The translations under genes were made by a program, and so were the position numbers. From sequence record PP449093.1: a stretch of DNA of 64,000 bases. One strand, 5' to 3'. The DNA is from Escherichia coli phage phiS. Shown here piece by piece: positions 10,234 through 47,619 of this stretch. Position 1 is the stretch's first letter. Each line of letters starts with the position of its first letter. The notes below the pieces were generated by a model that saw nothing but the letters and a program-made list of their open reading frames with translations, did no database searches and was not told the DNA's origin.

Positions 10234-10262
10234 TTGACGTAAAGAAACGGGAGTAGTAAGAT
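10234..10262 (+). promoter_or_regulatory. early promoter cassette with GGGAGTAGTAAGATACTCCC hairpin around the -10
   Basis: TTGACG, 17 nt spacer, TAAGAT; 7-bp stems GGGAGTA/TACTCCC flank the -10. Confidence 0.65.
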
Positions 10263-10291
10263 ACTCCCATACCAAACGAAAGGAGAATCAC

Positions 10292-10511: not shown

Positions 10512-10540
10512 TTGACACCGGATTAAGGGAGTAGTAAGAT
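10512..10540 (+). promoter_or_regulatory. early promoter cassette with GGGAGTAGTAAGATACTCCC hairpin
   Basis: TTGACA, 17 nt spacer, TAAGAT inside the dyad. Confidence 0.65.
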
Positions 10541-10573
10541 ACTCCCATCAAGAAAAACATTGAGGAATATATT

Positions 10574-11332
10574 ATGAAAAACATTATCGCTGCTATCGTT
10601 CTTTCTGCTACTGCTTTCGGTGCTAACGCTGCGTCCTTTGATTGCGCTAAAGCGACTACCAAATCAGAGAAGTTTATTTGTGCTAACGAGTCTATCTCCG
10701 CGCTGGATTCGAAACTTCATGAAGTATATGTTAAGGCTGTTAAGATTGATCCGTCTCTTAAACAAGAGCAACGCAACTGGAATAAAACTGTTCGTGATAC
10801 AATGATCAATATCGGGCAGATTCAGCCACTGGAGGCTGTATACAACGCTCAAATCCAAAACTTGATGAATGCATTACCTAAAGAAGAAACCGCGTCAGAA
10901 AGCGATTCAGAGACTTCTGTGAAGGTTGACGAAGAACAACCGAAACAGGAAGAAAAAGTGGTGGAAGAACCGAAGGTCGAAACTTTTACCTATCAATGCA
11001 CCGTTCGTTATGAGTGGAGTATGAAAGATGGAATTTCCACAAAAATTAAAGAAGCGCCACTGTATGCCAAATATGGAAATCAACCAGGAGATCTTAAAGT
11101 AACCATTAAAAATGGGAAGATGGTTGATTTTGTATACATTGATGAATACAACGTACACAAAGCAAACGTACAAGAAACCGTTATGACTAAAGGCGGGTTT
11201 TATAAGAATGTTGGCAAGAAAGATCTATATGAATACTCCGTTTTCGAACCAAACGACGGAACTATTCGATTTGAAAAACGTCATCCTACATTCGGTGGCG
11301 CAATTGATGTAGATCAATACGTTTGCAAGTAA
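10574..11332 (+). CDS. secreted protein with N-terminal LprI/DUF1311-like (lysozyme-inhibitor family) domain
   Basis: Signal peptide MKNIIAAIVLSATAFGANA; CxxAxTxxExxIC..LD..L..Y motif; acidic linker; C-terminal domain of about 120 aa. Confidence 0.55.
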   Translation: MKNIIAAIVLSATAFGANAASFDCAKATTKSEKFICANESISALDSKLHEVYVKAVKIDPSLKQEQRNWNKTVRDTMINIGQIQPLEAVYNAQIQNLMNALPKEETASESDSETSVKVDEEQPKQEEKVVEEPKVETFTYQCTVRYEWSMKDGISTKIKEAPLYAKYGNQPGDLKVTIKNGKMVDFVYIDEYNVHKANVQETVMTKGGFYKNVGKKDLYEYSVFEPNDGTIRFEKRHPTFGGAIDVDQYVCK

Positions 11333-11343
11333 GAGGTTAAATT

Positions 11344-11631
11344 ATGCAATTCAATAACATGAAGATTACAAAAGATTGGTGGAAGGCGATGCAAGATACT
11401 CCAGAAACCAAATTAAGCGAGACAACAACCACGATACAAGTTGATTACGAAGATCCGAAAGACATATACAGGGAAATTTTAATCAGAGAGCTTATAAAAG
11501 CTGGTAATTATCAAACACCGGACGGTCTTATTGACATGATGGTTAAAGGTCTGTATAGTGGTAAAAATCCAGATGTTTTACCGTGGTACGAGGGATATTT
11601 TAAAACATATCGTGACCACAACCGAAAATAA
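11344..11631 (+). CDS. hypothetical protein (95 aa)
   Basis: ORF with GAGG SD. Confidence 0.55.
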   Translation: MQFNNMKITKDWWKAMQDTPETKLSETTTTIQVDYEDPKDIYREILIRELIKAGNYQTPDGLIDMMVKGLYSGKNPDVLPWYEGYFKTYRDHNRK

Positions 11632-14622: not shown

Positions 14623-15405
14623 CTAAACAGCCGGTCCGTAAATGGCTCCGCGATTTTGCCACGTTGGGGCAGACCCTATAACAGCATAACCGGCATCGCC
14701 GCCATTGTATTCATATCCTTGACCACGAATATTACATCTACCTCCTGCGGCGCCTACCTCACCACCGCTTCCGCCATTATAGACATCGTTCATGGACCCC
14801 GAACCAGGCGCATAAAGAGTACCAGCAGTTGCGCCTGATTGCATGTTGGCAGATCCACCAGCAGCACCAAACGGACGACCGCCGCCACCACCAAAAGTTA
14901 ATTTCATTGGTTTCGTAGGAGAATAATACCCACCACCTCCACCGCCACCGCCGCCAGCGATAGCACCGCCATTATTAATTCTTAGCCTCCCACCAATATC
15001 ATTTTGAATACAATGACCCCCAGCTGATCCAGGACTATTGCTACCGCCATTCCCTCCACGACCATACATCGTTACGCCATGTATATTCAACTGAACATAT
15101 TCATTCGGTGTATCTCCATACATAAAGAATAAAGGAACATCTTTAGAATATGATACTAAATCTCCAGTGATATTAAACACTATAGGTGTACTACCTGCCT
15201 CAAAGCATCTATCACGGAACCACTGACCATTGAAGTTATGGTCTGCTCCAAGTGTATGAATAATTTCTCGCGAGCGACCTGCAAATTGACTCATCCAGCA
15301 AGGAACACCCAATCTTAATTGACCAGCCGCTTGACTCATCCATCGTTGTCCTGTTTCATTTACGGATGAACTACCAATCCAACCAGGAACACCAACTACT
15401 GCCAT
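14623..15405 (-). CDS. 38: T2-type receptor-recognising tail fibre adhesin gp38
   Basis: N-terminus [51 protein letters not shown] as recalled for T2-family gp38; glycine-rich motifs (GGGGGGGGG) separating variable segments. Confidence 0.9.
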
Positions 15406-15441: not shown

Positions 15442-18342
15442 TTAGAATTTAAAATATTTACTAATTTTGCGAGCAATTTTAGTGAAGAAAGGAGTTTTCA
15501 ATTCTTTAATTTCTTCACTCATTTCCTGAATAGCCTTAATTAAAAGAGCATTCACAGCAGAGTTAGAAATTGTCAGAACATCGTCTGGATTATCAAGATT
15601 GCCAACCTTTGAAGATTTTACAGCTTCCGGTAATATTTCTTGTAAATCCTGTGCGATAATGCCGATCTCGTGACCGATAATTTCACGGTCTTTAAGAGAT
15701 TTAACTTTATCGTAAGTTTTCACTTTCAGTTTGCCAATTAAACTTAACGCATTTCCTGTATAATCTTCTATATTGTCTTTAAGGCGACGATCTGAACGAA
15801 TATACACATCGTTAAAGCTACCGTTTCCGGTTGCGTTAAATTCACCGCTTGCGTGGAATTGGAACTCCCCAGCTTGAACATGAAGAACAGCGGCTGCGGT
15901 ATTATTACCATCACCGGGACAATGAACGTCCATAGCAGCGATATATTGACGCCCCCAATCAACCGCTTTCCAAACAGCATGAGCACTGTCAATACTTTTC
16001 TGGCAGTCAACCAACAAACCAGCAGGGCGGTCTCTCCATGAAACATATGCACCACCATCAACTTCACCACGGATAAGTCCTTGATCTGCGGCATAAGGAA
16101 CACGCCCTTCCAGTTGAATCATTGCGCCCTTAAAGTGATGACTAAATGGTCCACCGTGGTTATTGCGAATATGTAAAATACCCTCATCGGTCGCCCAAAT
16201 AACAGCCTTTTCTGTTTCGCTAGCATCTCTAAACCAGATATGGCGTGCACCAGTTGAGTTTTTGATGGTTATTCCATTAGGTCCACGCACGGTCAAAGCA
16301 CCGGATACATCAAATAAAACGGTGTCATCTGTTCTACGTTCCGTATAGAAGTGATAACCTTTGGAATCACCGATTTCCATTACTGCCGCGCGTCCAACTT
16401 CTGAATTTCCCCAATTGTTGATAGAGAATCGTTCAGAGCTATTATTCATCTGATTTAGGTATAATGTACCGTCAGTGAAGGTTTCGCCAAAGAATCTGGT
16501 TTTAACGCCGTTAGTACCCCCCACGCGTTCAAATTCAGCCAAGAAACCTTTGGAATCTCGCATACTCAAAACGTTATTGCGTCCTGTATTACTGTTACCC
16601 CAATGGATTAATTCAATATAGTCCATTGACTGACGAGACCCTGATCTAAACACCATATTATCTTCGATGCGGGTGCTACCATCAATTCCCAGATGTAAAC
16701 AGCGTGCGGTAGCTGTGCCACCTAGATCTAATCCACCTTCGGCGAAATCATAGCTGAATGGTCTACGAGTATTCCAATTTCCAAAAGAATCTTTTAAATC
16801 GGTAGTCAGTATATGGAAACTAGTACCATCATTTCTAAAAATTAAGCCATAATTGCCACCTTTAACAGCCAAACGAGCATTTTCAGATAATGCAACTTCG
16901 CTATTCATTACAATTTTCTGGCCTTTACCGCCAGTAATATGCAATTCACCGTTTTCGATCAAGTTTATTGAGTTTTGACCGTTATCGTTCCACCAAATAA
17001 AATCTTTGGTCGTCAAATCACCAAAACCAAACCAGCCATTACGAACATCTTGACCAGTGCGATAATCCATAAAATTAAAATGGCTTGCTTCGTTTGGTCC
17101 TCGACGAATATCAATACCAGCATTAGAACCGGAACCTAAGCCACCATCGATGGTCAATCTACGAATATGCAAACCGGTTACAGCCGAAAGCAATAATTGT
17201 TGGGTTACATCGGTATATCCAGTAGCAAGACGATAATTTTGGTCATCAACACTTTCGTGCCAGATAGTGGCAGGACCAGAGCTTCTAAACCGACGTAACA
17301 TCTTTTTAGCATTTGTCGGTTGTTCGTTCATATGCTCAATGTCATATTGTCCTTGATGGTTGCCAGCAAAATTTAATGTTCCACGGTTACTGAAACTGTT
17401 AAAAGAGCGTATTGTATATGCATCATAGATATGATCAGCTACAGGTTTTTCGCCTACATATTCAGGTCGATCAAGTACAGTTAAATTAACATCGCTGGAC
17501 GCTTGATATTCAGCCATTACCATATTAGTAAATTCGAAGTAACATGCATAGATATCATAAGTGTCATCACCTGTATTAATGGCACAAAATTGATTTTCGT
17601 AACCGGAAACATGATGATACGCAACAAAGTTAATTCCTTTAGGCGAACCGTTGCTAGTCCTTATAACAAGTTCAATAATATTACATTGTCCAGTTCGTCC
17701 TACGTTCCACCCATTTCCACCAATCAATCTAATTTTCAAGCCACGTCCGTCATTTTGCGGAATAAAGGCGGTAGCAATTTTAAACCATCCACTTTCTACA
17801 CCAAAGTTGATGGTCTTCTGGAACATCCGATCTACTTCTTGCTTGCTGTATACATTCAATTCCGACGGACTAGGCTTATCTCCTTCGTGATACATGCGAT
17901 ATGAATATGCTAATACACCATCGGCATTATAACCATAGGTTTTTACAGTAGGGACAATGCTAGAACCATAAGTAAAATCAAACCCACGAGCATGATTGAT
18001 ACCGCTAGGATGGGGAATATGCAAAGCAAGTGCTAGATGACCATCCATATCATTAGTGCGAAATGCCCCGAATTTGTCAAGATTTCGTGCGGTCGGATCA
18101 TCGAAATAGTTTGCGGTATTACTCCACACAAGGTCACCCACAACCACGCGACCGTTTACATTAAAGCCTTTGTCATAAACAGGAGGGCAGCTTAAATTAA
18201 CAATTTGCCCATCATCATTTTTTGTAAGCAGATATTGGTCTGCTAAGTTAATTGCCAACTCTCCCGGATTCATCGTACCAGCATCCGGTTTACGTCCGGC
18301 TGCGCTAGTGCGTTTAAACTGGATTCTGTTTAAATCTGCCAT
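15442..18342 (-). CDS. 37: long tail fibre distal subunit gp37 with C-terminal intramolecular-chaperone-like domain
   Basis: N-terminus matches T4 gp37 pattern (M.DL..IQFKR...G..P...GELAINL.D); C-terminal SDRRLKDNIED motif resembles peptidase S74 self-cleaving chaperone domains. Confidence 0.85.
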   Translation of the reverse strand: MADLNRIQFKRTSAAGRKPDAGTMNPGELAINLADQYLLTKNDDGQIVNLSCPPVYDKGFNVNGRVVVGDLVWSNTANYFDDPTARNLDKFGAFRTNDMDGHLALALHIPHPSGINHARGFDFTYGSSIVPTVKTYGYNADGVLAYSYRMYHEGDKPSPSELNVYSKQEVDRMFQKTINFGVESGWFKIATAFIPQNDGRGLKIRLIGGNGWNVGRTGQCNIIELVIRTSNGSPKGINFVAYHHVSGYENQFCAINTGDDTYDIYACYFEFTNMVMAEYQASSDVNLTVLDRPEYVGEKPVADHIYDAYTIRSFNSFSNRGTLNFAGNHQGQYDIEHMNEQPTNAKKMLRRFRSSGPATIWHESVDDQNYRLATGYTDVTQQLLLSAVTGLHIRRLTIDGGLGSGSNAGIDIRRGPNEASHFNFMDYRTGQDVRNGWFGFGDLTTKDFIWWNDNGQNSINLIENGELHITGGKGQKIVMNSEVALSENARLAVKGGNYGLIFRNDGTSFHILTTDLKDSFGNWNTRRPFSYDFAEGGLDLGGTATARCLHLGIDGSTRIEDNMVFRSGSRQSMDYIELIHWGNSNTGRNNVLSMRDSKGFLAEFERVGGTNGVKTRFFGETFTDGTLYLNQMNNSSERFSINNWGNSEVGRAAVMEIGDSKGYHFYTERRTDDTVLFDVSGALTVRGPNGITIKNSTGARHIWFRDASETEKAVIWATDEGILHIRNNHGGPFSHHFKGAMIQLEGRVPYAADQGLIRGEVDGGAYVSWRDRPAGLLVDCQKSIDSAHAVWKAVDWGRQYIAAMDVHCPGDGNNTAAAVLHVQAGEFQFHASGEFNATGNGSFNDVYIRSDRRLKDNIEDYTGNALSLIGKLKVKTYDKVKSLKDREIIGHEIGIIAQDLQEILPEAVKSSKVGNLDNPDDVLTISNSAVNALLIKAIQEMSEEIKELKTPFFTKIARKISKYFKF

Positions 18343-38560: not shown

Positions 38561-38589
38561 TTGACACTGAATAACGGGGGTAGTAAGAT
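38561..38589 (+). promoter_or_regulatory. early promoter cassette with GGGGGTAGTAAGATACTCCC hairpin
   Basis: TTGACA, 17 nt spacer, TAAGAT. Confidence 0.65.
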
Positions 38590-38622
38590 ACTCCCATCGA
38601 AACGAAACAAAGGAGAATCAAA

Positions 38623-38841: not shown

Positions 38842-38870
38842 TTGACAGCATATCACGGGAGTAGTAAGAT
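38842..38870 (+). promoter_or_regulatory. early promoter cassette with GGGAGTAGTAAGATACTCCC hairpin
   Basis: TTGACA, 17 nt spacer, TAAGAT. Confidence 0.65.
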
Positions 38871-38903
38871 ACTCCCATACCAAAACAACTAAGGAGTATC
38901 AAG

Positions 38904-47558: not shown

Positions 47559-47587
47559 TTGACAATGATTAAAGGGAGTAGTAAGAT
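47559..47587 (+). promoter_or_regulatory. early promoter cassette with GGGAGTAGTAAGATACTCCC hairpin
   Basis: TTGACA, 17 nt spacer, TAAGAT. Confidence 0.65.
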
Positions 47588-47619
47588 ACTCCCATAAAGA
47601 CAACAAACGGAGAATCAAA

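Follow-up and report, generated by a model that had tools for sequence, protein, structure and literature searches.

The gene analyzed here lies at positions 10574..11332 on the + strand of a 64,000-nucleotide stretch of Escherichia coli phage phiS (sequence record PP449093.1), the whole of which is referred to below as the window. The coding sequence starts with ATG and specifies a 252-aa protein, the orthologue of RB49p262 (NP_891833, UniProt Q7Y3G7), which is composed of a signal peptide, a DUF1311/LprI-like module, an acidic linker, and a C-terminal domain (C-domain). Allelic swapping of the C-domain is the most informative feature of the gene and was absent from the initial annotation of this DNA. 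A nucleotide search with the 2 kb around the gene gave 58 matching records; Escherichia phage vB_EcoM_011D4 was 99.5% identical, and the next 19 records listed, RB49 included, were 91-98% identical to the same 2 kb. Phages 011D4, RB49, GEC-3S, and JSE are classified as Krischvirus, family Straboviridae, and the phage of the window is an RB49-like Krischvirus. The gene is located in a hyperplastic region with the topoisomerase gene 52 on one side and the holin gene t on the other, followed by the tail-fiber genes. The protein matched PHROG 14799 over its full length (E 5.5e-155). Its domain annotation is already public: the RB49 protein is named [quoted passage not shown] in UniProt, and the E. 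coli copies are named "lysozyme inhibitor LprI family protein" by the Prokaryotic Genome Annotation Pipeline (PGAP). The only literature on the gene that was found is the entry RB49ORF260c, with DUF1311 at E 0.2, in a 2006 table (PMC1524935), on the assumption that this open reading frame (ORF) is the gene under study.

The first 19 residues (10574..10630, + strand) form a Sec/SPI-type signal peptide according to a rule-based call from composition and the -3/-1 rule. At the N-terminus, MKNIIAAIVLSATAFGANA/A, K2 belongs to the n-region, residues 3-17 make up a hydrophobic core with a mean Kyte-Doolittle value of 1.86, and A-N-A precedes A20, with cleavage predicted after A-N-A. The signal peptide is kept in all relatives in the alignment, and residues 1-20 had low predicted local distance difference test (pLDDT) values in the AlphaFold model. 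No lipobox motif L-[AS]-[GA]-C was found around the cleavage site FGANA/ASFDC. On the basis of its sequence, the protein is expected to be soluble and exported to the periplasm.

The constant module that follows, residues 20-103 (10631..10882, + strand), is a DUF1311/LprI-like helical domain with a Cys24/Cys36 pair. The Pfam LprI profile PF07007 matched residues 24-76 with E 3e-5 and 24.8 bits (gathering score 22), a marginal match that spans profile positions 1-71 of 106, or two thirds of the profile. The same profile matched all 21 family members, with a best E of 9.7e-6. The motif C24-x2-A-x-T-x2-E-x2-I-C36 ... L44-D45 ... L48 ... Y52 is present, and C24, C36, L44-D45, L48, and Y52 are invariant or nearly so across the 21 sequences; in an alignment of four lineages C5, C17, D26, and Y33 are invariant. 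The AlphaFold model calculated from the 21 sequences places helices at residues 30-100. Searches of the whole protein and of the N- and C-domain profiles against the PDB gave nothing, or chance matches with E 0.3-0.6 to a GH85 enzyme. Two further hits were treated as noise, namely a signal-peptide-like match to NCBIfam BhsA (12.9 bits) and the PADLOC candidate PDC-S13 (14 bits, residues 54-111).

The module is joined to the C-domain by an acidic, disordered linker (residues 104-134, 10883..10975, + strand), delimited by pLDDT, composition, alignment, and blastn. Approximately from residue 101 to residue 134 it contains 12 D/E in 34 positions, its pLDDT is below 50 for residues 104-131, and its length differs among homologues. 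The C-domain itself (residues 135-252, 10976..11329, + strand) is an eight-stranded β-barrel in the models. The full-length AlphaFold model (21 sequences) has a β domain at residues 135-251, and residues 136-251 modeled alone gave eight strands with a pLDDT of 88.5 and a predicted template modeling score of 0.80. Cys142 and Cys251, in the first and last strands, are invariant, and the C-domain is probably stapled by a disulfide between them. No sequence relatives outside its own family were detectable: a phmmer search of 1.84 billion representatives returned one family member and three repetitive proteins judged spurious, and the profile search of the PDB gave chance matches. Among its fold neighbors were many lipocalin, FABP, and outer-membrane barrels; the closest folds include the bacterial surface lipoprotein barrels fHbp, NHBA, TbpB, and Tp0751, and one BFVD neighbor is annotated as a phage lipoprotein.

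Comparison with 36 relatives separated a near-constant front from an exchangeable back. Residues 1-100 are 84-100% identical (median 98%), whereas the C-domains of the same 36 relatives are 19-100% identical (median 32%) and fall into 11 clusters at 80% identity, eight at 60%, and five at 45%. The two C-domain super-groups have no profile similarity past the first strand (hhalign 2.6%). The boundaries of the exchange are sharp at the DNA level. In blastn comparisons with GEC-3S and ELT3 the identity of the window is 95-98% as far as 10975, no match was obtained for 10976-11313, and 93-94% identity resumes at 11314, 16 nt ahead of the stop codon, so that the swapped DNA cassette corresponds to 10976-11313 and its left breakpoint to the end of the linker. 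Sequenced Krischviruses carry three alleles at this one locus: the RB49 type (44 records, 42 of them at ≥99% identity), the phi1/GEC-3S type (12 records), which is 36% identical to the RB49 type, and the JSE type (L023, 3767-4585), whose 272-aa protein has a C-domain of the group (P0018/P0019 type) that, apart from JSE, occurs in E. coli prophages. The idea that an "immunity" gene downstream changes together with the C-domain was rejected: beyond the point where homology resumes, all three alleles are followed by one and the same ORF, and the C-domain therefore has no linked partner gene. In being discrete, uniform within a type, and exchanged by recombination at the linker, the alleles resemble long-standing recognition variants maintained in circulation more than the outcome of ongoing rapid drift, and discrete types with sharp breakpoints are the pattern expected of recognition modules under frequency-dependent selection.

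The N-module is not confined to virulent phages. It was found in 26 of 5,426 complete E. coli genomes at 94-96% nucleotide identity, and synonymous codon differences outnumber non-synonymous ones in seven of nine pairwise comparisons. In the two E. coli chromosomes that were inspected the gene is the last of a prophage with a GpA-type terminase and stands beside a truncated hicB. At both loci (L022, 9001-10342, and L002, 10001-11317) the prophage sits in the antitoxin gene hicB, the C-terminus of which is missing according to PGAP while hicA is intact, and the LprI-family gene is the prophage gene nearest the junction. Between the window and the prophage in L002, 10568-10944 is the only part that matches, at 94%. 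The gene also occurs within ~0.6-1.4 kb of the contig end in nine IMG/VR viral contigs of 23.6-36.3 kb. The last prophage gene next to the attachment site is a typical position for genes that are expressed from the prophage. An exchangeable C-domain on a near-invariant DUF1311 module, common to virulent Krischviruses and E. coli prophages, appears to be undescribed, and our literature searches found nothing on such a combination.

The same layout of signal peptide, LprI domain, and linker was observed in more distant phages, in a 252-aa protein of Klebsiella phage Marfa and a 239-aa protein of Aeromonas phage CC2, which score 22.4 and 28.4 bits, above threshold, with PF07007. The C-domains of these two proteins are unrelated in sequence, and that of the Marfa protein lacks the β-barrel signature. 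In Marfa (L007, 644-925 and 3001-3759) an annotated Spackle homologue lies ~2 kb away from the secreted LprI-domain protein, which is encoded between the primase gene 61 and the dCTPase gene 56. When the four-lineage N-domain alignment was used as a search profile, the hits were limited to 20 small DUF1311 proteins, no type VI secretion system (T6SS) or phage neighbors were recognized in three genomic contexts of these proteins, and a scan of genome contigs with the N-module gave no confirmed locus.

Upstream of the gene, a promoter scan, motif count, and folding identified a sigma-70-type early promoter with an overlapping stem-loop at 10512..10546 (+ strand). The -35 hexamer TTGACA (10512-10517) is separated by a 17-nt spacer from the -10 hexamer TAAGAT (10535-10540), and the stem-loop GGGAGTA-GTAAGA-TACTCCC (10527-10546), with a 7-bp stem that overlaps the -10 hexamer, folds with -13.3 kcal/mol (z -2.4). 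A ribosome-binding site GAGGA (10562-10566, + strand) can be read off the sequence 7 nt before the ATG. Promoter-early stem-loop (PeSL) cassettes have been described in RB49 and phi1 (Arbiol et al., 2010; PMC2839356). Like them, the cassette at 10512-10546 combines a sigma-70 consensus promoter with a conserved stem-loop and is repeated in hyperplastic regions: the 35-nt motif has five copies in the window compared to zero expected (none in 100 shuffles). The composite motif matches the PeSL of RB49 and phi1, so the terms "promoter cassette" and "early" in the initial annotation are reasonable, and judging from the promoter type the gene is probably expressed early in infection. The four other copies, with 0-1 mismatch, are at 10234-10268, 38561-38595, 38842-38876, and 47559-47593 (+ strand) and mark further cassette-type early genes in the window. 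As with the PeSL-flanked ORFan cassettes of RB49 and phi1, the gene lies in a hyperplastic region directly behind a canonical PeSL; however, the exchange there involves the whole ORF between PeSLs, whereas here it involves one domain within the gene, with breakpoints at the linker and the last six codons.

Thus, every element listed in the initial annotation was found. The promoter was borne out, and its type makes early timing probable; the cleavable signal peptide agrees with the rule-based prediction and with conservation in relatives; the DUF1311/LprI pattern is there, and the profile search places it above the Pfam cut-off; the acidic linker is modeled as disordered with its 12 D/E in 34 residues; and the second domain has a confident eight-strand AlphaFold model.

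The working function of the family can be approached through its characterized members. In enterohemorrhagic E. coli, the DUF1311 protein Etsi4 rescues cells from Etse4, a periplasm-acting, cell-wall-targeting T6SS effector (PMC12981562), and DUF1311 immunity proteins have been predicted in Salmonella Dublin (SED_RS06230) and among Pantoea orphan immunity genes (PMC8867033, PMC9796082). ScwA of Salmonella is a periplasmic, disulfide-bonded DUF1311 protein that raises the levels of the lytic transglycosylase MltD (PMC7933661). The phage protein shares with this family, Etsi4 and ScwA included, the hidden Markov model match and the CxxAxTxxExxxC...LD..L..Y motif; its N-terminal module is modeled as helical, a Sec signal and export to the periplasm are predicted for it as well, and by analogy the shared working logic could plausibly be periplasmic binding of peptidoglycan hydrolases. 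The family link therefore makes such binding plausible without establishing it. In contrast to other DUF1311/LprI proteins, the phage protein is extended by an acidic tether and a β-barrel that can be exchanged, and in contrast to the T6SS immunity proteins its gene is not beside any T6SS effector and is carried by virulent and temperate phages.

Our preferred, though tentative, interpretation is that the protein may be a periplasmic immunity or exclusion factor. This interpretation was adopted because the protein has an export signal, two Cys pairs, and two folded domains; because DUF1311 scores above the Pfam threshold in all members, also those of Marfa and CC2; and because Etsi4 rescues cells from Etse4 toxicity and similar proteins are predicted in Salmonella Dublin and Pantoea. 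It was also adopted because of the early-type PeSL promoter, the prophage-end position beside truncated hicB, the N-module common to virulent and temperate phages at 94-96% identity with mostly synonymous changes, the discrete C-domain types with sharp DNA breakpoints, and an RB49-like DNA in which no Spackle homologue was detected and the endolysin is not a muramidase. In the proposed mechanism, a virulent phage would transcribe the gene from its sigma-70-type early PeSL promoter, and temperate phages would carry it last, next to the attachment site. The exported protein would then be oxidized, forming two disulfides, and present two modules on a flexible acidic tether, the constant DUF1311 helical module and the exchangeable barrel. 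Its role would be to bind and neutralize external proteins directed against the envelope of an infected cell or a lysogen: the DUF1311 module might serve as a generic hydrolase-binding or anchoring part against invaders of the peptidoglycan-hydrolase type, and the barrel allele would set which competitor is recognized. The most plausible targets would be the muramidase-bearing penetration devices of superinfecting phages, a Spackle-like job, or T6SS and bacteriocin peptidoglycan-hydrolase toxins, while recombination at the linker would keep several ancient alleles circulating.

The comparison with T4 Spackle (gp61.3), the inhibitor of the gp5 tail lysozyme, is a hypothesis by analogy. Both would be early, Sec-exported, disulfide-containing periplasmic phage proteins, properties that are predicted for the protein described here, and the same job is conceivable for it in RB49-like genomes, in which no Spackle homologue was detected. 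Searches by tblastn with Marfa Sp and T4 Sp found none in the window or in positions 1-95,000 of RB49, which by coordinate estimate cover all of RB49 but ~10 kb of mostly structural genes, and no sp gene is annotated between genes 41 and 61. This lack of a detected Spackle is compatible with a Spackle substitute. The two proteins differ in that Spackle is highly conserved and specific for gp5 (PMC7677548), whereas the protein of the window is polymorphic; in addition, no sequence or fold homology of the 252-aa protein to T4 Spackle Sp was found. Of the two RB49 lytic enzymes checked, only gp5 (L021, 20150-21952) has a lysozyme domain (Phage_lysozyme, residues 189-320). The annotated endolysin p102 (L021, 9719-10108) is a Peptidase_M15_4 (46.8 bits) and not a T4 e-type lysozyme. 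A periplasmic muramidase inhibitor would therefore not hinder the lysis of the phage itself, which mildly favors the inhibitor idea. For the same reason the gpe lysozyme, suggested as a target in the initial annotation, is not a relevant self-target in RB49.

Several observations weigh against an immunity or exclusion role. Among all Krischviruses gp5 identity is never below 98.8%, irrespective of the allele they carry, and no target was identified; co-variation of the C-domain allele with the gp5 of the phage itself was accordingly rejected, and the polymorphism is therefore not tuned to that gp5. Marfa carries both Spackle and the same architecture, ~2 kb apart, so the two are not simple substitutes. 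PF07007 is without experimental support as a lysozyme inhibitor, and a mutant lacking the DUF1311 protein ScwA keeps unchanged lysozyme susceptibility (PMC7933661). Finally, PhiA, an MliC-fold protein without the SGxxY loop that MliC/PliC proteins insert into the lysozyme active site, showed no in vitro inhibition of muramidases (PMC8334348).

A bolder form of the exclusion interpretation, which we regard as rather doubtful, is that the locus represents an unrecognized allele-specific exclusion/immunity system of virulent T4-like phages and temperate coliphages, with a constant DUF1311 module and interchangeable periplasmic recognition barrels. At least eight barrel types, two of them unrelated in sequence, would each be directed against a different class of incoming competitor, such as a toxin that acts in the periplasm or the penetration device of another phage, and new combinations of specificities would arise through exchange at the linker, as in polymorphic toxin/immunity systems or tail-fiber adhesins.

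An alternative that we judge unlikely is a ScwA-like regulator, in which the DUF1311 module would bind or stabilize host lytic transglycosylases such as MltD and thereby tune peptidoglycan turnover, with effects on lysis timing, lysis inhibition, or envelope robustness and not on attackers from outside. The precedent is ScwA, an enterobacterial periplasmic DUF1311 protein that raises MltD, plays no part in resistance to lysozyme, and brings about lysis upon overproduction (PMC7933661); the holin gene t is also close to the gene of the window, at ~2.3 kb within one hyperplastic region. However, host peptidoglycan enzymes are conserved, which leaves the eight or more unrelated C-domain alleles unexplained; DUF1311 is C-terminal in ScwA, a different architecture (PMC7933661); and protection of the lysogen would account better for the location at the end of the prophage. 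The ScwA results also bear on the term "lysozyme-inhibitor family" used in the initial annotation. Membership in PF07007 stands, whereas the name by itself does not demonstrate inhibitory activity: the family was named for M. tuberculosis LprI, in which lysozyme inhibition sits in a separate MliC domain, and the ScwA mutant has no lysozyme phenotype (PMC7933661).

Masking of a receptor or the envelope, as by T5 Llp or Cor, seems quite improbable. In such a scheme the variable barrel would reach an outer-membrane protein from within the periplasm and, by binding it, block adsorption or injection by other phages, or stop the loss of progeny on cell debris. In favor of masking, the range of alleles could correspond to outer-membrane receptors that vary or substitute for one another, the protein-binding surface lipoprotein barrels fHbp, NHBA, TbpB, and Tp0751 are among the nearest folds, the BFVD neighbor is annotated as a phage lipoprotein, and cor-type genes have a similar prophage position. 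On the other hand, the lipobox and outer-membrane anchoring of Llp/Cor-type proteins were not found, leaving the protein without a membrane anchor. Moreover, the C-domain is 100% identical in 011D4 and RB49, and the RB49-type allele is 99-100% identical despite differing distal fiber/adhesin modules, so it does not track the receptor specificity of the phage itself; co-variation of the C-domain allele with the adhesin or fiber was rejected on this ground. The missing co-variation and the missing lipobox together argue against an Llp/Cor-like mask. The fiber modules were compared at the adhesin region of the window, which encodes a T2-type gp38 adhesin of 260 aa at 14623-15405 (- strand), together with 15442-18342 (- strand). 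This gp38 is 91-94% identical to the top 60 records listed, which are mostly of Tequatrovirus type (RB3, RB14, Yersinia phage PST) with a few Krischviruses and do not include RB49. Phage 011D4 has one ~970-aa distal-fiber ORF instead of gp37 and gp38. The gp38 region looks like a cross-genus exchange of a receptor-binding module.

A genuine LprI-type inhibitor (DUF1311 plus MliC) of c-type or other lysozymes, in which the C-domain would be an MliC/PliC barrel of strongly altered sequence that blocks the active site, is very unlikely. The C-domain was checked for MliC identity because M. tuberculosis LprI consists of DUF1311 and MliC, and the module order is the same, with an exported protein that has DUF1311 first and then a small eight-strand barrel with terminal cysteines. 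The C-domain model also has the eight-strand antiparallel barrel of MliC/PliC, with a predicted disulfide between the first and last strands, and shares with MliC and PhiA the barrel size, strand count, and cysteines in these strands. Nevertheless, the Pfam MliC profile (PF09864) matched none of the 21 members even with E values as high as 10, comparison by hhalign with an MliC alignment of limited diversity gave probabilities of 2.5% for group A and 0.95% for group B, and the SGxxY active-site loop is missing, the equivalent stretch here being KGGFY, which is not conserved in other alleles. On the basis of Pfam, hhalign, and the motif, membership of the C-domain in the MliC family was rejected; in contrast to M. 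tuberculosis LprI, the C-domain is not a detectable MliC and is polymorphic, and the protein is not a lipoprotein. The protein is LprI-like in layout, with a C-domain that is not placed in MliC. The initial interpretation is supported in part: the domain layout, the relationship to DUF1311/LprI, the signal for export, and a promoter of early type are upheld, whereas lysozyme inhibition as a property of the domain, identity of the C-domain with MliC, and gpe as a self-target are not supported. Least probable of all is a periplasmic barrel that binds a small molecule or lipid (lipocalin, YceI, or FABP-like) in envelope physiology unrelated to conflict. Many fold neighbors are of such types, but a metabolite binder would hardly be expected to exist as discrete alleles that recombine or to be shared by phages in competition, and no family assignment was obtained for the C-domain.

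To our knowledge, Spackle and, in part, Imm are the only factors for which superinfection exclusion in T4-like phages has a molecular explanation. If an exclusion or immunity function holds, a secreted protein with swappable recognition domains would provide a compact and easily testable model of phage competition at the envelope. The locus also offers a natural experiment on the widespread, functionally unproven DUF1311 domain, as DUF1311 stays constant while its partner domain varies. The ~95% nucleotide identity between a Krischvirus, a lytic phage of therapeutic type, and E. coli prophages means that the gene could affect cocktail compatibility and lysogen resistance. The result is not surprising enough to overturn anything, and it could reveal an allele-specific exclusion system; if the protein is inert in exclusion, the finding is an annotated hypothetical protein with an interesting recombination pattern.

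Two further features were noted. A 96-aa DUF1311 ORF in a metagenome contig (L024, 3887-9290) overlaps two neighbors, the final part of a 705-aa HemolysinCabind protein and the first part of a 1,011-aa ORF; frameshifts may have broken up a single large secreted protein here, or the ORFs may represent a toxin/immunity arrangement. In the window, the best sigma-70 consensus match of the region, TTGACA-17-TATAGT (11/12) at 11531-11559 (+ strand), is located inside the next ORF (11344-11631) and may be an internal promoter for downstream small ORFs.
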